From NCBI GenBank assembly GCA_030390025.1, contig CM059432.1, positions 39,000,001 to 39,064,000 of the forward strand: 64,000 nucleotides of DNA. The letters run 5' to 3'. The notes under the pieces were generated by a model. The model did not search any database. It was not told where the DNA came from and worked only from the letters and a program-made list of their open reading frames with translations. Shown here one piece after another: positions 35,968-64,000 of this stretch. Origin of the DNA: Squalus acanthias (lineage: Eukaryota). A program made the translations under genes and the position numbers. The first letter of the stretch is position 1; each line of letters starts with the position of its first letter.

Positions 35968-37374
35968 ACAATTTCTAAATTTGCAGATGACACCAAATTT
36001 GGGGGGCGGGTTCATCAATACTGAGGAGAACAGTAACAAATTACAAGAAGACATTAATAAACATGCAGAATGGACATATAATTTCAAATGATTTTCAAAA
36101 CAGATTACTGTGAGGTATTACATTTTGGGAAGAAAAATAAGGATATCATATATTACTTGGAAAATAAGAATCTAAGGGGTAAAAATTCACTTGGTTGCGC
36201 CTCCCGTTAGCACCTTAAGAGGGCGCTAATGGGGCGTTAAGCCGCTAACGCCCGGGCGCAGCGCTGTTTGCGCCGCTCGAGAACTTAACTTGAGATTGTG
36301 CGGCGGCGCTAAAACTTACCGCTGCGACCACCTGCGCGCGCAGATTGTGACGTCATTCCATGGTGCAACGCCCTTGGGGCGCCCCGGAGCGGAAATTGAG
36401 TGGCGCCCCCTGCCTTACCGCCTGGCGCTTCCAACGACCGGAAGACTGGAACGTTATCAATCGGTGTGGGGCTGGGGGGGGCGCTATTTAAAGGGGGCCT
36501 CTTCCTGTCTTTTTCTGTGGTCGACATTTATGCACCACTCGTTCTGAGAGAGAGAGAGAGATTCGGAGAGAGAGAGAGAGAGACTTCTACATTGACTCAA
36601 CGCTTTGTGAGGTAGTTTGGCCTAGTTCATCCTAACTTTGTTGCTACTTTAGTTGCTGTACCTCATTACTTTTCTGGCAAAGAGAATATGGGGGCTGCAA
36701 TGATTGGGGGCGTCGTCCTGCTCCAGCTGAATCGGAGGATAGTGAGACGCAGACAGAGAGTGGCAATGATGGCCAGACGGAGGAGGGCCATCAGGCGCAT
36801 GTACAGGAGAGCTTACCCTCCCAGGGTATATCGTGAACAGCTCTCCTACATCCATATGTCCGAGGAGCTGTGTTTGCGAAGGCTGCGATTCAGCAAGGAG
36901 GTGGTCACTGAGCTCTGCCACCTGCTGCAGCCAGATCTGCAGCCTCAGCTGAGGTCCAGGACGTCTCTGTCGGTGGCAGTGAAGGTCACAGTGGCTTTGA
37001 ACTTCTACGCCACTGGCTCATTCCAAGCTGCTGTTGGGGACCTCGCCAATATCTCCCAGTTTGCGGTGCATCGCTGCATCCGGCAGGTCACCAATGCCCT
37101 CTTCAGAAGGAGACGAGACTTCATCTCTTTCCCTATGACCCCAGACAAGCAGCGTGACCGTGCTATGGGCTTTGCGAGGGTAGCGGGCTTCCCCATGGTG
37201 CAGGGCGCCATTGACTGCACGCATGTGGCTTTGCGTGCTCCGCGAGAGAATGCAGAGGAATTCAGGAACAGAAAGGGGTTCCATTCCTTGAATGTGCAGT
37301 TGGTCTGTGACCACAGACAGGTGATTCTCGCTGTCAATGCCCACTATCCGGGCAGCTGCCACGATGCTTTCATC

Positions 37375-39021
37375 TGTAAGGGATTTGACCGTGCGTGTCT
37401 CGCAGCCTGTGAGATTCACGCGGCTCTGTGCAGCCTGTATGTCAGTGCGGGTCTAGGCCTTGTTGCCTGTTCTGGTCTCCAGCCAGTCTGGGAGCACTAG
37501 ACACACCTGTGAGTGGTTCGAATCACTCGCCCTTACGGTTCTAGACACTGGACTTAGATGCGAGAGCAGTAATGGAGATGAAACTCATGTAGACTCGGTT
37601 GAATGGTACGAAATGGAAAATCTTTATTGCATGATATTTAAGATTATGAAATACATGTCATAAGCACAGATTAATGACAGTACAATCTTACAAGCAGTTA
37701 TATAGCTAATCCTAGGGAAACGAGGAACGAACGACACACCGTAAATAGGGGCACACATTACAAGTATCCTTAATACTTAAACCCTCCCCTATCAATATCT
37801 GTCCTAGCTAGATTCGTAGGATTTCGAGACTCATGCTCACCACTCGTGATAACTCGGAGAAATTCCGAATAGCTGATCGGATGTTTTTCACCGCAGCACC
37901 CACGTGTCGATCAGGAGATCTCCTGGTCCCACTTGTTTACTTGCTTCTGCTCCGGCTAGCAGGCTGGACCGTCTGCTGTGATGAAGATCTGTGTTGGTTG
38001 GTTTAACTGGCACAGTCCGAATGGGTTTCACAGACCAGTCAATATTATCTTGGAGGATCTTCCAAGGTCTATTCTTGCAAGTTCAAAGAAGTCTCCCTAG
38101 CAAGGAAAACTTGGCTATTCGACCTACAGGCGCGGTCGGGATCTACTGACCGTGGCGATGAGTATGGTCTTCCTCTCTTCTCATCTCATCTCATCTCATC
38201 TCGGGCCTTTGGTTCCGATGCCAGTTACCAACATAGGTCTTCGTTACGCGACACGAGGTAGATCCTGAACGGATCAGAAAGTTCAACAGCCTTTTTCAAA
38301 GAGGCACCAGGCAAGCAGGCACAAGACTACGAGTCAAAACACAGGAGCAGCCACGAGGTTACGAGTCGATCGGATAAGAGAATAAGAGAAAGATGGACGG
38401 TTGGAGCTTGTAATTATAGTACAAAATCTTCCGTTTCCCGCCCAACCTTAATGTCCTTTCTTTTGTTAGGGTTTGGCGCTCAAATGTCTTGTATGGGTGA
38501 TCTCCGTTCTTAATGGGTTTCGGGGCTACTCGTAAATGTCTGAGTACCTGTTAATATTTCTCCCATTGTTAAATCGGTCGGTGTTCTCCCTGGAGGGGTT
38601 TTGGGGCTTCCAAGTGTTTTGAAAAACTACCCGCTAACGGCTCTCTCATCGTAGAGTCGTTGGGATTTTACATATTAATGTCTTTGGATGGGCCCTTGAT
38701 TACTTGGTACAATAGCTTTCATTCGTACCTTGGGAGACCGATTTCAGTATTTATGTGTATACTGTAAACCCATAATGTCTCGTGTATTATCTTCAATGTG
38801 CTGAATCTTAATCGATCTTGCACAAATGTTTATTGGAACGCCATCTTGTCTGCCTGTCGGAAAGTCTAGAATGTTCTGTCACGAGGTGCGGCGGCCATTT
38901 TACAGGCTGCTTGTGTCCACTTTGAGAAACCTGACAGCATTCTGCTGAAATAAAAGCTGTTTGAACGAAACTCTGTGTTTTCTCCTTATTAATAAAATCG
39001 CGATATATTGCGAATTCTACA
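37375..39021 (-). repeat. 3' LTR (1647 bp)
   Basis: Near-identical to 45078-46724 (5 transitions seen by eye); minus-strand AATAAA at 37623-37628; preceded on the minus strand by a purine-rich tract. Confidence 0.97.
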
Positions 39022-39033
39022 GTCCCTCCTGTT
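39022..39033 (-). promoter_or_regulatory. Polypurine tract (short, imperfect)
   Basis: Minus strand AACAGGAGGGAC directly abuts the TGTA start of the 3' LTR. Confidence 0.65.
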
Positions 39034-39471
39034 GATGCGAATAACTCCGCTTATCGTATCAAAAATCATAGTGGTGAGCAATATTATCTCGATTTCTCTC
39101 CGAATCCAGCAAATTAATCCCATAACTTTAACCTAAATAGGGTCTCTGTGTCGTCCTTATTTCCCAAGAAAATTACATTTTATATCACCGTGGGCCTTTA
39201 TTTGCCCTTAAACTTACACCACTTGTTTTCCTTCCCGGCGTAACCAGGCCGATGCCTCTCGTATCACCTGTATATTCATCTTTTATTCAGGGAAAGGAAA
39301 AACAAAACCCAAAACCAAACAATCATTTTTAACTATAACACCATCACCAAAAATAATCAACACCAACTCTTAACATGTCGAGTTCCAAACGTATTTACAG
39401 TCTTTGAAAATCATGATCGAGTACAAACTTCCGCGGCGCACGTGGCGAGCGGGAATGACGCCATTTTCCGA

Positions 39472-41823
39472 TTACACGGTGCTTTCATCGTGCACGCGCA
39501 CGTAACGTTCTCGCCACTCTCCCGTGTTTTCATGCTTGGTGAGGCGTTTGTCTCTTTTACAATGTACGACCAATAGGTACACTACAATAAACACTTGACA
39601 TACGACTAAAATGTGGGAGGCTATTCTGATCCATGAAGGCACTTCAATATTGGTGAACAGATTCCACCACGGTGGAACTACTATATCCAGAATGTCTGTT
39701 CCTATTTCGACAGTTTTCTGTTCTAATGTGTAAAAATGTTTCTGTGACACCGCGACGGCTTTTAAAAGCTTGGTGAGGTGTTCAGGGAGAGGGGGAATGA
39801 GGTATCCGAAATGCGCGAAAAATCGCTGCAAGTCGGTGAAATTCTCTTTTACTGTGAGATGAACAGTGGATGGTTCAGGGATTGGGATAATTCGCTGTTG
39901 TGCTACTTGAACTTCCGCCCTGGGTTTGAAACAGAAACTGCTGTCACTCACCGGACACCGGCTACGGTTTCCATGCTGGTAGTGTTGCGCTGCAGTGGTA
40001 ACACAATATGTTCCACCCCCGATGTATGCTACCTGCGGAGGCACATGATCTTGTGCCATTGCCTCCATGGTGCAATTCATGGACTTGGCGCCAGTCGTTC
40101 TGAACCCGCACTGTGGTGTTAAAAAGGCATTCAAGTGCTGGGGGCACAGTATTATGTGTGCTCCCCTGCCACGACAACCAGAGAGATCTGTACCTGTCAT
40201 CATTTGCTCCCAGCGGATGACGTAAGGTGGAACCGCTGCATAACGAATGTGGGCTCCCCCCTGAATGACACCAATGTTCTCTACCCGATACACCGGGGCG
40301 GGCTTTGCTGTGTCGCCCAAAACCGGCATGCGTAAAACTATACCCATAATGGTATGGTTTGATCGTCCGCAGTCCACGGGGACTGGGTATGCTTCTGAAG
40401 CTAGCCTGAGCTGGCACGGGCTCAATGCGTTCTGAAAAGGGTGGAGCGCCCGCAGGTGTTTGTTACTTATCCAGGACAGGACCAAACCTTGTTTTAAATC
40501 CTCCAAATTACTGCGGCCCTCGCCCAGTAACCACGCCCCGTAAAGCACGCACACCTCGTTCTGCGCAGCTTGATCGGATGTATTCCGATCTTCCCTAATC
40601 AGGGCATTTACCGTCTTTGCATGTTTCTCCAACTCTGCTATAATTTCCTTTAAATGGAGAGTCATGGCTTGGTCCTCGTGTAGACCAGACCCTACCACTT
40701 TATTCTCATCTGTTAGAATGTCTTTTAATTGTGTCTTTAAACCATTAATCTGGGTCTGCAGCTCCACACTGTCTAGAGCGTTGACCACAGATGTACCCGT
40801 GTTAAAAGCAGTGAACGCGTCGTTCACTACACCCCTTCTTTGCCTCCCTACTTGATCCAAAACTTCCTGTGGTGCGGTGTACAAACTTGTTTTATCAATT
40901 TCCGCGAAATCGAATTCGTAAAATTGTCTGAACATCTTGGTCAACAGGACCTGATACAACTGTTGCGTCTTTTTGGGGCACCACTCTGGTAACCGTACCT
41001 CAGTGAGATTTAAAATCACCGAGGCCACCGCGTAATGTACCCCCTGAAATAGTATCTGGTCAGTGGGGACCAGTACCAAACCATTCCCGGGTCCCTTACT
41101 AGTTTTAGGGCACCCTTCCTCTTCAGCTAGAACCACCGGAATCGTGGGCGGGGCTTTGCGTGGGCGCGTAATGAGCTCAGTGGCATTTACCGGGATCGAA
41201 GAGTATGGGGCTCCGCACCCCCTGGTGCTCGCATCCCACCTCATCCCCTGTCCGTTATCCTGCCACTGATTAATGAAAAATATGGATATGCCTTTGGGGC
41301 AAGGGTATTTTGACCCCCACATGCATACATAAATTCCCTCGTCCGGTTCCCACCATTTGTCCCAACAGACTTTCACTTGTCCGTTTGTCCCCGTAATTGT
41401 CCGATGGGTATTATTATCCAGTCGCTCCCACTCGACCGAAGAGTTCCTCATAGTTTTGCTCAGCTTTCGCAGCCACCACCATCGGCTCAATGGGACATTC
41501 CCACTACAAGTCAAACAAATCCGTTTGCCGACGGTGACGCTGATCCTGGGTGCGATGATCCTTACTTTGGGGCACATTAAAGAAGTCTCTTGGTAGGCAA
41601 ACCCCGATGTGCTGGAATACTCCGTCGAGTTCGTTCCCAGCCATCCTGGCCACCTTCCCTTGTGGAAATAGGTGCTGGTCTCCTCTGCCTCCCGTCTTCC
41701 GGTCCCATCCACCGCGATGGGGGCCGTGTCCCCGGAGCATCCAAACACCACGACATCCTTGGTGCGGCCTCGATAGGCCAATCCACATCCGATTGCCGCG
41801 AGCAATACTAGAATTCGTTCCAT
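39472..41823 (-). CDS. env: Envelope glycoprotein, class I fusion (F-like), about 783 aa, with putative Ig-like domain
   Basis: Signal peptide MERILVLLAAIGCGLA; furin site RQRR (40834-40845) followed by fusion-peptide-like GVVNDAFTAFNTGTSVVNAL and a heptad repeat; Cys-rich ectodomain; TM ASHILVVCQVFIVVYLLVV; short tail. ORF is open from 41982, but a splice acceptor lies just upstream of ATG 41823. Confidence 0.9.
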   Translation of the reverse strand: MERILVLLAAIGCGLAYRGRTKDVVVFGCSGDTAPIAVDGTGRREAEETSTYFHKGRWPGWLGTNSTEYSSTSGFAYQETSLMCPKVRIIAPRISVTVGKRICLTCSGNVPLSRWWWLRKLSKTMRNSSVEWERLDNNTHRTITGTNGQVKVCWDKWWEPDEGIYVCMWGSKYPCPKGISIFFINQWQDNGQGMRWDASTRGCGAPYSSIPVNATELITRPRKAPPTIPVVLAEEEGCPKTSKGPGNGLVLVPTDQILFQGVHYAVASVILNLTEVRLPEWCPKKTQQLYQVLLTKMFRQFYEFDFAEIDKTSLYTAPQEVLDQVGRQRRGVVNDAFTAFNTGTSVVNALDSVELQTQINGLKTQLKDILTDENKVVGSGLHEDQAMTLHLKEIIAELEKHAKTVNALIREDRNTSDQAAQNEVCVLYGAWLLGEGRSNLEDLKQGLVLSWISNKHLRALHPFQNALSPCQLRLASEAYPVPVDCGRSNHTIMGIVLRMPVLGDTAKPAPVYRVENIGVIQGGAHIRYAAVPPYVIRWEQMMTGTDLSGCRGRGAHIILCPQHLNAFLTPQCGFRTTGAKSMNCTMEAMAQDHVPPQVAYIGGGTYCVTTAAQHYQHGNRSRCPVSDSSFCFKPRAEVQVAQQRIIPIPEPSTVHLTVKENFTDLQRFFAHFGYLIPPLPEHLTKLLKAVAVSQKHFYTLEQKTVEIGTDILDIVVPPWWNLFTNIEVPSWIRIASHILVVCQVFIVVYLLVVHCKRDKRLTKHENTGEWRERYVRVHDESTV

Positions 41824-42139
41824 CCTTCCTTGGTTCCTGTGATCAGATAGAATGAGGTAGCCAGCCTCGCAAGAGTCTCTGGCTTTTGTGAAGGGTGAGC
41901 GGGTCCCCTGACCTCGCCTCACGTAAACTTCAATGTTCGCTGAATAAACTTTAACTAAACCTATCTCTAAAGCTCCCATCATTTTGCCATTTTTTGTTAA
42001 AATTAAACTACAAACTTAACCTTATTTAATACTGTGAACTTCTACTTGACCTTGAACTATAAACTTAGAAACTTAAACTAATGAACTTAAACTTAAAACT
42101 TATTACTGTACAGCGCCGCCCGTTCTCAGGGCGGCCCCT

Positions 42140-43264
42140 TTAAATTCTGAGAAAACTGCTGCGAGCTCTTACCGACTTTGGGAGGGCTCTGACCTTTTCC
42201 TCTGATCTGCCGCAGCCTGTTTCTGCGCTGACCCCTCCCTCTGATCTGCCGCAGCCTGTTGCTGCTGCGATGGGGCCGGGCTGTACCTGGGCTGCCTTAA
42301 CCTTGAGTCTGCGCCTTGGGACAGACTGGGGCAATACCCATATCTTCTTGGGCTGGGGTTCTCTACCTGACCTACGGGGAGTTGTCATGGGCGGGGGTTC
42401 CGTGACTGACGGACCGGGTTCCGAGACTTCCATCGGGACGACCTGTGGTTCCACCACAGTCGCTGGCTCCGCCTCCGCTGACTCCGCCTCCCTAACCTCG
42501 GGGCTCGCAGTTTGTGGCTCCGCCCTGCTCGGCCCAGCAGGCGGCCCTTCACTCGCGATCTCTGCCTCCCCCGAGGGCGGGACGTTCAAAGCGGGCGGCT
42601 CTGTCTCTGGGGTCCTCACCGTCACCCCCTGTGCTCCCACAGCGGCTGGCTCCGCCTCCCCTAGCTCCTCCCTCCTGTCTTCGGGACCTGCAGCTTGTGT
42701 GTCCACCCTGTGTGGATCTCTATCTGCAGCCCGTATCCTCCCTATACCTAAAATGGGAACGTTCCTTAGGTTCCCCAAAAACCACTCGCCTTCCTCACCA
42801 TCCTCATCTGACTCCCATCCCCACAAAAATGCTTCGTGAACTTCCAGGATGTCTCCTCCCCTGATGCAAGCTGCTTTGCCTGCCTGTGTGCCTTGTGGTC
42901 CTACCTGGGGCTGCGCGTCCCCACTCGCGGGGTTTACCCCTGTGGTTTTCCCTTGCGCACCTGGCTTGTACAGTTTGCACTGGTTTACATCCTCATACTC
43001 CCGGCTTTTGGCTACCCTGTAGGCTGCTTTTATCTCACTAAGCTGCGCTTCTAGCCTGAGCACGTCTAACTTTCCCATTGATCGGGCGTTCTCCTCCCGC
43101 AGGGCCTGCTCTCTAAGCTGCCCTTCCAGCCCATCTATTTTCCCTATTAAGCGGGCGTTCTCCTCCCGCAAGGCCTGCTCTTTTAACCTGGCCTCCTCAC
43201 CGCAGACCCCCTCCTGTGCGTGTCTTTTAAAAGGACACAGGTAGGCAGGCTGCGTGGGCTCTAG
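42140..43264 (-). CDS. ORF2, in frame with gag and occupying the pol position; coiled coil plus acidic/Pro-rich low-complexity protein of unknown function
   Basis: Open from the codon after TGA 43265-43267 to the stop at 42140; same frame as gag; duplicated EQALREENAR and TGCGRSE units; no protease, RT, RNase H or integrase motifs visible. Confidence 0.7.
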   Translation of the reverse strand, partial: LEPTQPAYLCPFKRHAQEGVCGEEARLKEQALREENARLIGKIDGLEGQLREQALREENARSMGKLDVLRLEAQLSEIKAAYRVAKSREYEDVNQCKLYKPGAQGKTTGVNPASGDAQPQVGPQGTQAGKAACIRGGDILEVHEAFLWGWESDEDGEEGEWFLGNLRNVPILGIGRIRAADRDPHRVDTQAAGPEDRREELGEAEPAAVGAQGVTVRTPETEPPALNVPPSGEAEIASEGPPAGPSRAEPQTASPEVREAESAEAEPATVVEPQVVPMEVSEPGPSVTEPPPMTTPRRSGREPQPKKIWVLPQSVPRRRLKVKAAQVQPGPIAAATGCGRSEGGVSAETGCGRSEEKVRALPKSVRARSSFLRI

Positions 43265-43459
43265 TCATTGGGTACTATTAGACGGTCCTGCGGCACCTAC
43301 GGGGCCGGTTGCAACCGCCACCTTTCCATGTGCACTCAATAAACTGCGCATGGCTCCCAACACTACTTCGAGGTCGTCGGGAGGGGTGGGTGCACCAGCT
43401 TCCCTAGCAGGGACAGGCGTCTGGGCTCGGGCTGCGGGATTTTTATCCTTGGAATCCTT

Positions 43460-45073
43460 TCAAGGGTTCCTGCAATGCTTGCGCCAGTGCCCTGTCTTCC
43501 CACACCCGTAACAAGCATTACTTGCCTGTGGGGCGCGATTACCCTCCTGATGCCACTCCCTTTGATACGGGGCTGCGGGTCGTACCTCATGTACTTTTCC
43601 CTTAAGGGGACGTGTTCCCATACCCCTTATATTGCGATATCCTAACGTGAGTCGATTCAAGACCGACTCTTCCGTAATGTTGGGGTCATTGGGATCAAAC
43701 CATGCCTTTGCCTGCTCTCTGACGGCTGGTAAACTGTTGGCTATTATGCACCTAAGCCAATGAGCTAAACCGGCGCCTTCCACATCTTCGCGCTCTGGCG
43801 CACCTAGACAGCTGCGCTGATATACTGGCCACAGCCTATCGGCAAAAACCTTCGGGGGTTCTCCCTCCATCTGCACTGTCTGTCCCACTCTAGCAAACGG
43901 ACCTTCATCGTCCGCCCCCAACACTTCCAGGACCTCATTCTTTAATGCCTCATAAGTCTTGGTTCCCCTCTTGCTCTCGCCCGAGAGACACTGAAGGATT
44001 GTACTGCCTAACGAAAACAACAGCATTTTTGCTGTTTCCCCATCATCGCAGCCGTTAATGGCTGCGGTTTGCTCAACTTCTCTGAAATGTACGGAAGGGT
44101 CGTCTGCCTCGGTTAGCTTCCGTACGTGATTTATCATAACTCTCAGCTGATGTGAACTGTGAGGCAATACAAGCTGTCCGAGGAGATCCCCTGATCCCTC
44201 CCCACCGTTTCTGTTTGGGCCCCTTTTTATACCCGTTACTGGATACAACGGTCCCTTTTCCACCTCTTTCTCAATGGGCTCTTTCGTTTCTTCCATTGCT
44301 TCCTCCCTTACCCAGGTTTCCGAATAGCTGGGTGGCGCGGAGGGCGCAGTGGCTACTACTTCCTCTGCTTTACTTGGTGGGGATTTATTAAACTCCTCAC
44401 TTACTAGCGGCTGGTGTGCTGACGGACTGATAAGGCACACCATGCCGTGCGCTTTGTTCACGGCCTTTTTGAGGTGCTCTATCTCCCTTTTGCAAGCGCT
44501 ATGATCAGCTCCCTGAAACTTATCCTCAAGGGCCAACTTATATGCCGCCCTAACCCCCGTTAAGCTCTCTTCCTGAGTTCTTATCTGGGCAGCTTGGCGG
44601 GCACATCGTTCCTTTAACCTGCTCTCATTTAACTTTGCCTCAGTGACCTGGCACTCGAGGTAATCTATCCTTGTTTTATGGTGACTGGAGATTTCCTGGC
44701 GTTCTTGGTGCAACGCACTTAAATTCCTAATGAGCATTTCCCCTCCAGAAACCTTCTCATCCATTTCTCCCTCTAAATGACTGATTCGAGCTGTTAGCGC
44801 TGTAATGGTCTGGTTTGAAATCTGGACCTGCCTTTTGTAACACATTAGCCAGACTGCTTTCTCAAGTGTCTTTTTATGTTCTTTACTATCTGTCCACCTT
44901 TCGGCTGCCTCTAGCGGGCTTTTATCCGCTAACAATTCACTTATCCATTTCTTAGTTAGATTAACCTTTCCAAACACATAATCTGCTATCTTTTCCTGCA
45001 TAACATTTCGTACAGTCATTCCAAAGTCTAACACACTACCCTCTCGCTGCCAGTGTCCTGCCGCGGTCGCCAT
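43460..45073 (-). CDS. gag: Gag polyprotein (537 aa to first TGA; frame stays open a further 64 codons to TGA at 43265-43267)
   Basis: N-terminal coiled-coil region, PSAPPSY late-domain motif, Ty3/gypsy-like capsid segment (DDPSVHFREVEQTAAINGCDD...), C-terminal CX2CX4HX4C knuckle CYGCGKTGHWRKHC; starts at the PBS. Confidence 0.9.
   Translation of the reverse strand: MATAAGHWQREGSVLDFGMTVRNVMQEKIADYVFGKVNLTKKWISELLADKSPLEAAERWTDSKEHKKTLEKAVWLMCYKRQVQISNQTITALTARISHLEGEMDEKVSGGEMLIRNLSALHQERQEISSHHKTRIDYLECQVTEAKLNESRLKERCARQAAQIRTQEESLTGVRAAYKLALEDKFQGADHSACKREIEHLKKAVNKAHGMVCLISPSAHQPLVSEEFNKSPPSKAEEVVATAPSAPPSYSETWVREEAMEETKEPIEKEVEKGPLYPVTGIKRGPNRNGGEGSGDLLGQLVLPHSSHQLRVMINHVRKLTEADDPSVHFREVEQTAAINGCDDGETAKMLLFSLGSTILQCLSGESKRGTKTYEALKNEVLEVLGADDEGPFARVGQTVQMEGEPPKVFADRLWPVYQRSCLGAPEREDVEGAGLAHWLRCIIANSLPAVREQAKAWFDPNDPNITEESVLNRLTLGYRNIRGMGTRPLKGKVHEVRPAAPYQREWHQEGNRAPQASNACYGCGKTGHWRKHCRNP
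45055..45072 (-). promoter_or_regulatory. Primer-binding site, tRNA-Arg type
   Basis: Minus strand TGGCGACCGCGGCAGGAC, 5 nt after the 5' LTR; complementary to the 3' end GTCCTGCCGCGGTCG-CCA that I recall for vertebrate tRNA-Arg(TCG). Confidence 0.85.
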
Positions 45074-45077
45074 TTTC

Positions 45078-46724
45078 TGTAAGGGATTTGACCGTGCGTG
45101 TCTCGCAGCCTGTGAGATTCACGCGGCTCTGTGCAGCCTGTATGTCAGTGCAGGTTTAGGCCTTGTTGCCTGTTCTGGTCTCCAGCCAGTCTGGGAGCAC
45201 TGGACACACCTGTGAGTGGTTCGAATCACTCGCCCTTACGGTTCTAGACACTGGACTTAGATGCGAGAGCAGTAATGGAGATGAAACTCATGTAGACTCG
45301 GTTGAATGGTACGAAATGGAAAATCTTTATTGCATGATATTTAAGATTATGAAATACATGTCATAAGCACAGATTAATGACAGTACAATCTTACAAGCAG
45401 TTATATAGCTAATCCTAGGGAAACGAGGAACGAACGACACACTGTAAATAGGGGCACACATTACAAGTATCCTTAATACTTAAACCCTCCCCTATCAATA
45501 TCTGTCCTAGCTAGATTCGTAGGATTTCGAGACTCATGCTCACCACTCGTGATAACTCGGAGAAATTCCGAATAGCTGATCGGATGTTTTTCACCGCAGC
45601 ACCCACGTGTCGATCAGGAGATCTCCTGGTCCCACTTGTTTACTTGCTTCTGCTCCGGCTAGCAGGCTGGACCGTCTGCTGTGATGAAGATCTGTGTTGG
45701 TTGGTTTAACTGGCACAGTCCGAATGGGTTTCACAGACCAGTCAATATTATCTTGGAGGATCTTCCAAGGTCTATTCTTGCAAGTTCAAAGAAGTCTCCC
45801 TAGCAAGGAAAACTTGGCTATTCGACCTACAGGCGCGGTCGGGATCTACTGACCGTGGCGATGAGTATGGTCTTCCTCTCTTCTCATCTCATCTCATCTC
45901 ATCTCGGGCCTTTGGTTCCGATGCCAGTTACCAACATAGGTCTTCGTTACGCGACACGAGGTAGATCCTGAACGGATCAGAAAGTTCAACAGCCTTTTTC
46001 AAAGAGGCACCAGGCAAGCAGGCACAAGACTACGAGTCAAAACACAGGAGCAGCCACGAGGTTACGAGTCGATCGGATAAGAGAATAAGAGAAAGATGGA
46101 CGGTTGGAGCTTGTAATTATAGTACAAAATCTTCCGTTTCCCGCCCAACCTTAATGTCCTTTCTTTTGTTAGGGTTTGGCGCTCAAATGCCTTGTATGGG
46201 TGATCTCCGTTCTTAATGGGTTTCGGGGCTACTCGTAAATGTCTGAGTACCTGTTAATATTTCTCCCATTGTTAAATCGGTCGGTGTTCTCCCTGGAGGG
46301 GTTTTGGGGCTTCCAAGTGTTTTGAAAAACTACCCGCTAACGGCTCTCTCATCGTAGAGTCGTTGGGATTTTACATATTAATGTCTTTGGATGGGCCCTT
46401 GATTACTTGGTACAATAGCTTTCATTCGTACCTTGGGAGACCGATTTCAGTATTTATGTGTATACTGTAAACCCATAATGTCTCGTGTATTATCTTCAAT
46501 GTGCTGAATCTTAATCGATCTTGCACAAATGTTTATTGGAACGCCATCTTGTCTGCCTGTCGGAAAGTCTAGAATGTTCTGTCACGAGGTGCGGCGGCCA
46601 TTTTACAGGCTGCTTGTGTCCACTTTGAGAAACCTGACAGCATTCTGCTGAAATAAAAGCTGTTTGAACGAAACTCTGTGTTTTCTCCTTATTAATAAAA
46701 TCGCGATATATTGCGAATTCTACA
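45078..46724 (-). repeat. 5' LTR (1647 bp)
   Basis: Direct repeat of 37375-39021; on + begins tgtaagggatt and ends gaattctaca; followed on the minus strand by the PBS. Confidence 0.97.
46114..46146 (-). promoter_or_regulatory. Candidate LTR promoter (GC box plus TATA-like)
   Basis: Minus strand GGGCGG (46141-46146) about 20 nt upstream of CTATAATTA (46114-46122). Confidence 0.45.
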
Positions 46725-47496
46725 CATCCTGCGCCAGACTACTGTGGCAGAACTTTTCGAGGCACCGCATCAGCCAGTTGGTTGGCTTCTGGGGGACAAG
46801 GGGTACGCATTGAGCACCTGGCTGATGACACCGCTCCGTACGCCAAACACCCCTGCTGAGCTGCGGTACCAGGAAAGCCATCAAGCAACCAGGAACATTA
46901 TTGAGCGCACAATCGGCGTGCTGAAACAACGGTTCCGCTGTCTGGACCATTCCGGAGGAGCCCTGCAGTACTCGCCTGAGCAAGTTTCGAACTTCGTAGT
47001 CGTGTGCTGCATGTTGCACAACATGGCAATCCTCAGGACCCAGCCAATGCCACCAGGCCTTGTAGCACCACCAGAGGAGGAGGAGGAAGAGGAGGAACAG
47101 GACGAGGACGATGATCATCAGCAGCACCAAGGCAGGAGGGCGGCCCACAATGGTCAAACTGCAAGGGCCGTCCGTCAACGACTAATAGCAAGCCGCTTCT
47201 AGGGCCCCTGCCATTGCTACAAACACTAATCAACCCAGCACGCAACCCCTAAGCCGGCCAAGGCACCAATAATTCCAACCACCAGCCATGTATATTTTGA
47301 ATACAGAAACTTATTTATTTTACAAACTCTGTGTGTGTCAATTCCTCATGACAAACTCATAGAAATAAACACAAAAAAACAGTCAATAACATAACTGGTT
47401 CTCACAACCTGGAGATAATGTCCAAAACACTAAACAAAAGTTGGACCATGAACCTCGGCCTTTAATAAAAAAATGACCAGCATTTTGGCACACCTC

Positions 47497-61890: not shown

Positions 61891-62783
61891 GGGGGAGAAA
61901 TTCAGTATCGCCCCATTTGGGGCGCAATTATCGGCCTGGCGCAAAGATTAGCACCTGGCGCTAATTATCGCCACCGACTGCAAACTTGACTTTTATCGCC
62001 CCTGGAGGTGATTGCAGCGCTAAATCAGGCGCTTCACACCTGTCTTAAGGCTCAAAGGCCGAGGAGCGAGGCGCTACCTCAGAGCGCTGGCGAAGCTCAT
62101 GTAATGTCAGTCAGCAATGGAACACACACACAATGGCACGGGCCAGTTCTTAAAGGGAATGGTTAATCTTGCTTTCCATCCACATCCTGCTCATTGCAGC
62201 CTTGAATCTCTGCCTGGAGAGACCTGCACATCAAATGTGCTGGAAAGAACAATGGAGAGTACCAGGCAAAGAGCTCAGAGTGCAGCCCCCACAGTCTCTG
62301 CTAAATCGATACAAGGAATGGCAAATCAAAATGAACCTGCAAAGTGCTGCTCAGTACCCAAAACTCCTTCACACAACGTTGAATCTCTCCAGAAGTCTCT
62401 CCCTCTCTCTCTCAGAATGCGTAGTTCAAAAATGGCACCAACAATAAAAGGCAGGAAGCGGTCACCTTTAAATAGCGCTCCCCCTTTCCCTTCATGACTG
62501 CAGAACGCTCCCCTCAACCTGTCGTTGCTAGCGTCAGGCGGTAAGGCAGGGGGCGCCACTCAATATCCGCTCCGGGGCGATACCGGGGCGTTGCGCACTC
62601 GAGTGACGTCATGATCTGCCGGCTCAGGAGATCGTGGCGGTAGTGTTTAGCGCCGCCGCAAAATGTCTAGTTAATTTCGCGAGCAGCGCAAACTTTGCCG
62701 CGCCTGGGCGCTAGATGCTTTGCACCCCATTAGCGCCCTCTTAAGGCGCTAACGGGAGGCGCAACCAACTGAATTTTTCCCCC
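61891..62783 (-). mobile_element. 893-bp internal-deletion derivative of the 36176-49766 Harbinger family
   Basis: TIRs GGGGGAGAAATTCAG / CTGAATTTTTCCCCC; TSD TAT; ends are reverse complements of the full element's ends; keeps the Myb leader (HPAHCSLES.PGETC). Confidence 0.88.
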
Positions 62784-64000
62784 TATGACTCTATGTTGAG
62801 GATACCGACATCTTGTATTCTTTCAGCCACATCGCTGGCCAAGTATGGCCAGCACCGTCTCCTCCATGGGGGTGAGGTGATGCAGGTGAGCCTGTCCCCC
62901 TCCGGTTATGTTCTGCTGGCGCTTGTTATGCGCCACCTTGGCCTGCAAGAGAAGCGGAAGTGTGTCAGTGAGTGTGATGTAATGTGTTTGGGTGATGTGG
63001 CTTCCATGGTTGATTAGCTGACAGTGTGTTCAAGCTGTGAGATGTGGGTTTGAGTGGTAAGTGTGTGCGGGTGAGATGAAGCTATGAATGTAAAGGTGTG
63101 AGTCGTTTTTGGTAGCGATTGTTGGTAGGTGAGTGATGGGGGTGTGCTGCAATGAGCATTGTGTGAAGCTAGTGGTGCAGATGGAGGGACAGGGCATTTG
63201 AAGATGAATTCACTGATCTTGACCACTCGTGTGAGGTCATTAAACTTTTTCCTGCACTGTTCAGGTCCTCGGGGCTACGCTGCTGGCATTTACCACAGTG
63301 GCTATCTGCTCCCACTGCACTCTTGTCTGTTGCCTGGAGGGCCTCTTGGCCTCCTGTGGAAAGAGGACCTCTCTCCTGGAACTGACCTCCTGGACAAAGG
63401 CCTCCGGTGCAGCATCAGAAAACCTTGGTGCACGCTCTCTCCCCTGTTGTGCCATCATTGGCCCAAAAATTAGTGCCGCTACGCGAGAGTACGCAGTGCG
63501 TACTCTCGCGTATTCTGTCTCCAATTGCCGGTTTTCTGCTTGCACTGCGCATGCGCTGAAAACCGGCACTTGGTGAATGGAAAAGGGGGCGGGTCCTAGG
63601 TGAACCGCGTGCGCGCTACAGGCTGTGCGCACGCTGTGCACTTAGTGGTTTCAACGCGCAGGTAAGTACGGAAGATTCTACACATAAAAAAAGGAGGAGT
63701 AAGACCCACTTTTAACAAGGTAAGTAGTGAATTAAGTATTATTTTGAATTTTTTTTAACAGGTGTATCTTTTTTAGAGACTTTAAAGACAGGTAAGTTTA
63801 TTTTTATAACTTTTTAAAAGATTTTTAATTTTTTCAAAAATTTAATTTTTTATTTAAAATGGTTAATTTATTTAACTATACTTATTTTATTAATGTGATG
63901 GTTTTTAAAAAAAATTTAATTGAGGTTTAGCGGTTCTTTTGGGGGGCTATAGTATTCATAACTTTCACAGCACTTATGTGAAAGTTATGAATGGAAGATG

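Follow-up and report, generated by a model that had tools for sequence, protein, structure and literature searches.

The 64,000-nucleotide stretch of Squalus acanthias DNA analysed here (the window; positions 39,000,001 to 39,064,000 of contig CM059432.1, assembly GCA_030390025.1) carries a young endogenous retrovirus (ERV) on its minus strand, a provirus with gag and env that lacks pol. Its env frame is unbroken, and on the evidence of a predicted structure we consider it quite likely that the product is a class Ib (F-type) fusogen that would serve viral entry rather than a host function. Papers are cited below by identifier.

The minus-strand frame is open from 42015 to 39472 over 847 codons, in agreement with the first-pass annotation of this DNA, a reading of the letters alone that had described an env frame without stops. 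The likeliest start is the ATG at 41823, which opens onto a signal-like stretch; a further in-frame ATG lies 52 codons upstream. The features of the env protein are given below in the direction of translation (aa, amino acids; KD, Kyte-Doolittle hydropathy; pLDDT, the predicted local distance difference test; HRA and HRB, heptad repeats A and B; Ig, immunoglobulin).

39472 to 41823, minus strand: env open reading frame (ORF), 783 aa, no internal stop; the stop-to-stop frame reaches 42015.
41770 to 41823, minus strand: signal-peptide-like stretch, aa 1–18; mean KD 2.73 over aa 4–16.
41323 to 41562, minus strand: probable Ig-like domain, about aa 88–167, from four weak lines of evidence.
40846 to 41112, minus strand: F2-like pre-cleavage segment, aa 238–326; alignments by the structural search VIA start from model residue 12–14 (aa 243–245) against F residues 23–38.
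40834 to 40845, minus strand: furin-type site RQRR, aa 327–330, by motif; R-X-K/R-R occupies the corresponding position in 13 of the 19 relatives examined.
40774 to 40833, minus strand: putative fusion peptide, aa 331–350, from its place after RQRR.
40492 to 40773, minus strand: HRA-like heptad region and central helix, about aa 351–444; model helices 99–145 and 152–213, the first half at low pLDDT.
39889 to 40395, minus strand: beta/Cys-rich block resembling F domains I/II, about aa 477–645; pLDDT 70–95 per 10-residue block; aligns to F and to foamy Env.
39688 to 39783, minus strand: membrane-proximal heptad helix (HRB-like), about aa 681–712; 0.71 hydrophobic at a/d positions, model confidence low.
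39559 to 39624, minus strand: transmembrane helix, aa 734–755; KD up to 2.55.
39475 to 39558, minus strand: cytoplasmic tail, 28 aa, from the sequence.

Much of this layout had been anticipated. The site RQRR is followed by 453 aa (about 450 had been claimed), and the heptad repeat (motifs LQTQ...KDIL at 40761–40714 and LKEI...EKH at 40653–40621), the Cys-rich block (motifs spanning 40188 to 39928), the second helix (near 39777) and the transmembrane helix all lie where they were expected. The tail exists as described, with 28 residues rather than about 26. The span first proposed for the envelope, 39472..41090, is right for the C-terminal part; it begins near aa 245 and leaves out about 240 N-terminal residues, including the probable Ig-like domain. 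As claimed, CX6CC is absent from the env protein, and it is absent from 19/19 relatives examined; the single CXXC, at aa 103–106, falls within the Ig-like part and has no CX6CC partner. In beta- and lenti-type Env the ectodomain of the transmembrane subunit is short, and a small Cys loop separates its two helices. Here the ectodomain after cleavage is about 400 aa long with the beta block between its two helices, which sets it apart from that type. Gamma-type Env, including the known syncytins, has an immunosuppressive domain and CX6CC between the heptad repeats HR1 and HR2 (PMC9967133); a CXXC in its surface subunit is bonded to the transmembrane subunit.

A monomer model of aa 232–728 was predicted with AlphaFold from a 31-row alignment, with a mean pLDDT of 71 and 80–95 in the core. 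Searched with Foldseek against the PDB, it matched F of human parainfluenza virus 3 (hPIV3; E 1.5e-10) and respiratory syncytial virus (RSV; 6.2e-9) and foamy Env (1.2e-6), as well as F of Newcastle disease virus (NDV), henipavirus and human metapneumovirus (hMPV). The best 40 matches were all (40/40) paramyxovirus or pneumovirus F or foamy Env; neither an orthoretroviral transmembrane subunit nor a non-fusogenic protein came out on top, which upholds the earlier claim of an F-class fusogen instead of a gamma- or beta-type surface-transmembrane (SU-TM) envelope. A wide search with VIA, which does not use Foldseek, over 48,161 chains placed F or foamy Env in all of its top 13 positions, with coiled coils following at Z 7.1 and below. 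NDV F reached Z 10.7 (root-mean-square deviation (rmsd) 18.5, 326 residues aligned) and foamy Env 8rm0 Z 9.7 (rmsd 5.8, 304 aligned); a second VIA comparison gave post-fusion Nipah F at Z 11.8 (rmsd 6.3, 288 aligned). By this predicted structure, paramyxovirus F and foamy Env are equally near in the wide search. The first-pass assignment to the paramyxovirus/baculovirus F class was therefore correct as to F class and too specific, since foamy Env is tied and is the best profile match.

Among the 50 best Foldseek matches in BFVD, a set of predicted viral structures, were lispivirus and fish-filovirus glycoproteins, F of baculovirus (E 1.1e-9) and of paramyxovirus, and walleye epsilonretrovirus Env. 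Support that does not depend on the model came from a sequence profile of the env family, whose best solved match was foamy Env (E 0.0027, over the beta block), with a paramyxovirus-type F0 behind it at E 0.6. Used as a single query sequence, the protein matched no fusogen among solved structures, and the ESM Atlas returned for the whole env protein one unnamed chordate cluster at 0.84.

The structural alignments cover model residues 12–471, starting from aa 243, N-terminal of the cleavage site. In class Ib fusogens, strands ahead of the cleavage site belong to the core (PMC11468914). Because the match takes in about 90 F2-like residues before the cleavage site, we assign the protein to class Ib and not to the gamma/beta SU-TM type. 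Consistent with this, the model has a two-subunit core, and the sequence has a basic site, putative fusion peptide and HRA, then HRB before the transmembrane helix. With paramyxovirus and pneumovirus F (hPIV3, NDV, Nipah, RSV, hMPV) the protein shares the F2/F1 layout, a post-cleavage chain of about 450 aa, a beta/Cys block between two heptad regions and a short tail. It differs in its low identity to them (7–16% to solved F), in a weaker fusion peptide and in about 235 extra N-terminal residues, whereas those F proteins need a separate attachment protein.

That low identity is one of several points that weigh against a class Ib assignment. The TM-scores are modest (0.26–0.43 by query) and rmsd is high across the long helices. 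Around the cleavage site and fusion peptide, and at the HRB end, pLDDT falls below 50. The env protein has no match to Pfam Fusion_gly (PF00523) or Baculo_F, and 37 relatives gave one weak Baculo_F match only (E 0.0011, under cut-off); of the F comparisons suggested in the first-pass annotation, the one with solved structures thus succeeded and the one with Pfam failed. The putative fusion peptide does hold nine small residues among 20, as had been noted, and is only mildly hydrophobic (mean KD 0.7). Finally, the strict furin motif is missing in 6 of 19 relatives.

Class Ib fusogens are trimers whose refolding to a six-helix bundle drives the fusion of membranes. If the protein works as one of them, the signal peptide would route it through the secretory path and furin would cut it at RQRR, with about 90 aa ahead of the cut remaining in the core as an F2-like segment. 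Upon triggering, HRA would extend, the fusion peptide would insert, and fold-back onto the HRB-like helix would join the membranes. The probable Ig-like head would be the likeliest attachment module.

This head, aa 88–167, is probably an Ig-like domain in front of the fusogen. Four weak lines of evidence point to it: Pfam Ig_3 (E 0.15), antibody V matches (E 0.14–1.2), Ig clusters in the ESM Atlas (0.88–0.90) and a low-confidence N-terminal model that matches Ig V chains only (best Foldseek E 3e-3). The N-termini of two relatives carry an Ig label or a weak V-set match, and comparison with the Ig-labelled part of a bamboo-shark relative reached only E 0.016. We call the domain probable because the N-terminal model is poor (mean pLDDT 37; best VIA Z 5.7). 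An Ig-like receptor-binding domain is known for gamma-type Env (bioRxiv 2024.03.17.585361); no description of one on an F-type Env was found in the literature searched, which leaves out most subscription papers.

The post-cleavage chain has 38 matches among 1.84 billion representative proteins. Thirty-one were looked up, and the 25 that could be named come from cartilaginous fish (21), frogs (3) and a coelacanth (1), with no teleost or lamprey among them (0/25). Identity ranges from 75% in the closest named relative, from a skate, to about 20% in frogs. Two complete relatives have 451 and 465 aa C-terminal of the cleavage site. A tree was built from 21 of 25 rows, omitting three whose matches were short and one that had none; in it env groups with sawshark-type sequences (100/99). 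The tree has no outgroup and shows grouping only. One phmmer match, to a bacterial-type repeat protein, was considered spurious and entered no alignment. Fourteen public runs from five organisms contain 31–45% of the sampled words, and four of these runs (four organisms) were mapped, yielding 321–1157 contigs each at 88–100% identity over 29–30 of 30 bins. Because each run holds hundreds of such contigs, the provirus and its env belong to a many-variant family.

In shark gene models, pieces of the env family are joined to Niban-like, cadherin-related and Fbxo15 genes; the joins are artefacts of annotation or else env fragments that have become exons. About 260 mid-env residues (the HRA end through the beta block) are missing from a skate gene model with both ends in frame, because of a wrongly predicted splice or of an internal deletion in env. 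Two full-length relatives have open frames and lack the furin motif at its usual position, and one of them has no N-terminal head at all. In a whale-shark gene model, RNase H is fused to an env piece 53% identical to the query.

Placement of the element in a named virus group is tentative, since it has no pol and hence no reverse transcriptase (RT). With some reserve, we favour an origin among the true retroviruses of fish inside Retroviridae, in a snakehead-like/class III, a foamy-like or an epsilon-like lineage with its own class Ib env, over a lokiretrovirus origin; such an origin refines, and does not oppose, the reading of the element as a class Ib provirus. Besides the profile match to foamy Env, the Env proteins of the walleye viruses WEHV-1 and WDSV match the model, and the env-fused RNase H of the whale shark has weak matches to murine leukaemia virus RT/RNase H (E 0.47–0.9). 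RTs of cartilaginous-fish ERVs belong mostly to clade III (bioRxiv 2023.10.17.562709). Against this origin, there is no pol by which to place the element, its primer-binding site (PBS) is of Arg type whereas foamy-like ERVs use Lys/Asn primers (PMC5512871) and walleye viruses His (PMC3185748), and the 50 best BFVD matches do not include the Env of snakehead retrovirus.

Each of the candidate groups shares some traits with the shark envelope and lacks others. Foamy Env, solved as class Ib (PDB 8RM0, 8RM1, 8OZH; PMC11468914), has the same F-type core, is the best sequence-profile match and aligns to the model at Z 9.0–9.7. Its receptor-binding domain lies between the subunits and it has a long membrane-spanning leader; in the shark protein a core segment of about 90–93 aa precedes RQRR and the extra module is N-terminal, as in coronavirus spike (PMC11468914). 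The shark element thus has no inserted receptor-binding domain, and it has an Arg-type instead of a Lys/Asn PBS and a CCHC knuckle. Foamy Gag is not known to have such a knuckle. Predicted structures of walleye Env match the model (WEHV-1, walleye epidermal hyperplasia virus 1, Q9WHI8, E 6.3e-8; WDSV, walleye dermal sarcoma virus, A4GTG3, 7.2e-4), although these proteins are far longer (1159–1317 aa) and there is no sequence-level match. The walleye proteins have been called 'distinct' from gamma-type Env (PMC9967133). Judging by these predictions, an orthoretroviral genus, the walleye epsilonretroviruses, may carry a class Ib envelope, an exception to the first-pass statement that orthoretroviral transmembrane subunits are much shorter. 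Within the same literature scope we found no paper on the shark env family or on an F fold of walleye Env.

It is less probable, indeed unlikely, that the element is a lokiretrovirus derivative that extends this group to cartilaginous fish. An F-like Env is a described hallmark of lokiretroviruses (Wang and Han, PMC7947760) and would then be a known group trait. The shared features are a signal peptide, a basic RXKR site, a fusion peptide, a coiled coil, a transmembrane helix and likeness to paramyxovirus/pneumovirus F in Env; long terminal repeats (LTRs), gag and env in the element; and a coiled coil at the Gag N-terminus, ahead of the capsid (a supplement header reads 'smc-gag-pol'; PMC7947760). 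Lokiretrovirus hosts also include frogs and coelacanth, where distant env relatives occur. However, lokiretrovirus RT was reported in none of six chondrichthyan genomes (0/6; PMC7947760), and these include whale shark, the bamboo shark order and cloudy catshark, where the env family has members. No named env match (0/25) is from a teleost or lamprey, whereas most lokiretroviruses are, and the Gag of the element has a CCHC knuckle whereas a glycine-rich end is described for Bik-1 Gag. Membership of the group rests on an RT that falls in the clade sister to Retroviridae, along with a tether plus RNase H; RT is missing here. No Ig domain is mentioned for lokiretrovirus Env, and the word 'immunoglobulin' does not occur in the part of the supplement searched. 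The two envelopes were compared by description.

The age of the provirus bears on whether the host has adopted its env. The element spans 9.35 kb between two 1647-nt LTRs (37375–39021 and 45078–46724) that differ at 5 of 1647 sites (99.7% identical; divergence 0.30%), and it has inserted inside a Harbinger transposase. Its parts and the insertion site, apart from env, are as follows.

36616 to 37374, plus strand: front part of a Harbinger-type transposase ORF, split by the provirus; Pfam DDE_Tnp_4 positions 1–58 of 158, E 8.4e-12.
37371 to 37374, no strand: left copy of the target-site duplication CATC, from the sequence.
37375 to 39021, minus strand: 3' LTR, 1647 nt, TG...CA ends; 5 mismatches to the 5' LTR.
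39022 to 39030, minus strand: likely polypurine tract, a short purine-rich tract preceding the 3' LTR, from the sequence.
42140 to 43264, minus strand: ORF2 in the pol slot, in the gag frame, 374 codons; coiled coil then low complexity, no enzyme domain.
43460 to 45073, minus strand: gag, 537 aa; a coiled coil at the N-terminus, then a capsid-like middle part, and a single CCHC knuckle.
45055 to 45072, minus strand: PBS, likely tRNA-Arg; overlaps the gag ATG.
45078 to 46724, minus strand: 5' LTR, 1647 nt, from LTR-LTR comparison.
46725 to 47202, plus strand: right copy of CATC, followed by the rear portion of the Harbinger transposase; matches Pfam DDE_Tnp_4 positions 57–158, E 1.3e-20.

The provirus is very young: applying the mammalian rate of PMC7947760 to the LTR divergence gives about 0.7 million years. 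Gene conversion between the LTRs could give the copy too young an apparent age, a further point against our interpretation. Substitution rates are slower in sharks, which would make the date older and leave the probability of an intact env unaffected. An uninterrupted insertion site was seen in one contig of one public run, at a loose end at 46725, possibly in a different transposon copy.

That the host has co-opted the env of this copy as a syncytin-like fusogen, for which the first-pass annotation had put it forward as a candidate, is very improbable, and nothing we found points to host adoption. It is true that the frame is open although gag has an early stop and pol is absent, that young multi-copy ERVs in host service have a precedent in zebrafish Bik Gag (bioRxiv 2024.03.25.586437), and that env variant sites are synonymous in four of the five listed, a comparison of family members and not of orthologues. 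Gag variant sites are likewise mostly synonymous (7/10), which fits selection on the virus; both counts come from a small, pre-selected sample. The very young age of the provirus would by itself lead one to expect an unbroken frame. About 3.6 env substitutions are expected since insertion, and 4.5% of single changes create a stop, so that the neutral probability of no nonsense change in env is 0.85 (0.69 at the upper bound); it falls to 0.60 and 0.30 if indels occur at one tenth the number of substitutions. Moreover, env lies within a whole provirus, with near-identical LTRs, inside another transposon, and each run holds many variants. An open frame is thus to be expected of a very young provirus whose family has many copies, and the locus does not have the marks of a syncytin (an old, fixed, single- or low-copy locus that keeps env while the rest decays). 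No leader-to-env joint was present among six joints listed from four runs, whose contigs are not on record as RNA, so that this weighs neither way.

Least probable of all is that an LTR element recently captured a paramyxovirus or baculovirus F gene: the best Foldseek E-values do belong to paramyxovirus F and other Mononegavirales glycoproteins, but the extended model helices bias the ranking to post-fusion chains, identity is as low as stated above with no Pfam F match, and the relatives form a deep family (skates to frogs) with a tree of its own.

The gag of the provirus ends at a premature in-frame stop (43460–43462), about 65 codons short of the end of its relatives' Gag, the closest named of which is a skate protein (54% identity). 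Pfam gave no match to protease, RT, RNase H or integrase for the ORFs that lie between the two LTRs. As it carries gag and env without pol, the element would be copied by the enzymes of a pol-bearing relative. Where relatives' Gag ends (43267–43261, minus strand), a TGA is followed by CTAG, which we take to be a leaky-stop context, and ORF2 continues in frame beyond; ORF2 is likely expressed by readthrough of that TGA. Its depth is below that of env or gag in 4/4 public runs, and no homologue was found among the proteins retrieved. Related env or gag loci were absent from viral contigs, as were gag loci from metagenome contigs.

A few further observations concern these parts. ORF2 contains a duplicated 'EQALREENAR' coiled-coil unit followed by a Pro/Glu/Ala-rich tail. 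At 1647 nt the LTRs are of unusual length; a TATA-like box lies at 1318 and AATAAA lies at 1394, and their sense strand has no ORF of more than 70 aa. Among 28 tRNAs called where the PBS motif matches a tRNA 3' end, 25 belong to Arg, 11 of them TCG; the 58 loci matched (30 without a call) are metagenomic and mostly microbial, and hence indirect evidence for the shark primer. The gag ATG (45073) lies 5 nt past the LTR and shares the first PBS bases, so that the PBS encodes the Gag N-terminus; a similar peptide opens two Gag relatives. The Harbinger-type target transposon (36167–47200) has open transposase halves, and a related second copy lies at 62398–62792, inverted, with 79% identity over 395 nt.

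The F-like fold of a retroviral envelope is already known, and the finding is in this respect mostly a rediscovery. An F-type env is found in errantiviruses and, widely, across the gypsy elements of invertebrates (bioRxiv 2023.10.26.564294), and a survey of class I fusogens expects further F-type members in Retroviridae (PMC12583693). What is new here is an env family mainly in cartilaginous fish, a probable N-terminal Ig-like module and a lineage that has no place yet. The setting adds to its value, as this cartilaginous-fish family occurs where a published screen found no lokiretrovirus. We suggest tentatively, as a possibility short of an expectation, that sharks, rays, frogs and coelacanth share a third, so far undescribed class Ib env lineage, neither lokiretrovirus nor foamy, with an N-terminal Ig-like attachment head on an F-type fusogen. 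The intact, recent env is a natural test case for the modular model of class Ib, in which the attachment module may be N-terminal or inserted. It also bears on what kind of envelope the earliest retroviruses carried: if the third lineage is real, then, taken together with the walleye Env match, the F fold would occur in several deep branches of the retroviruses, an orthoretroviral genus among them, and would be a candidate for their ancestral envelope.

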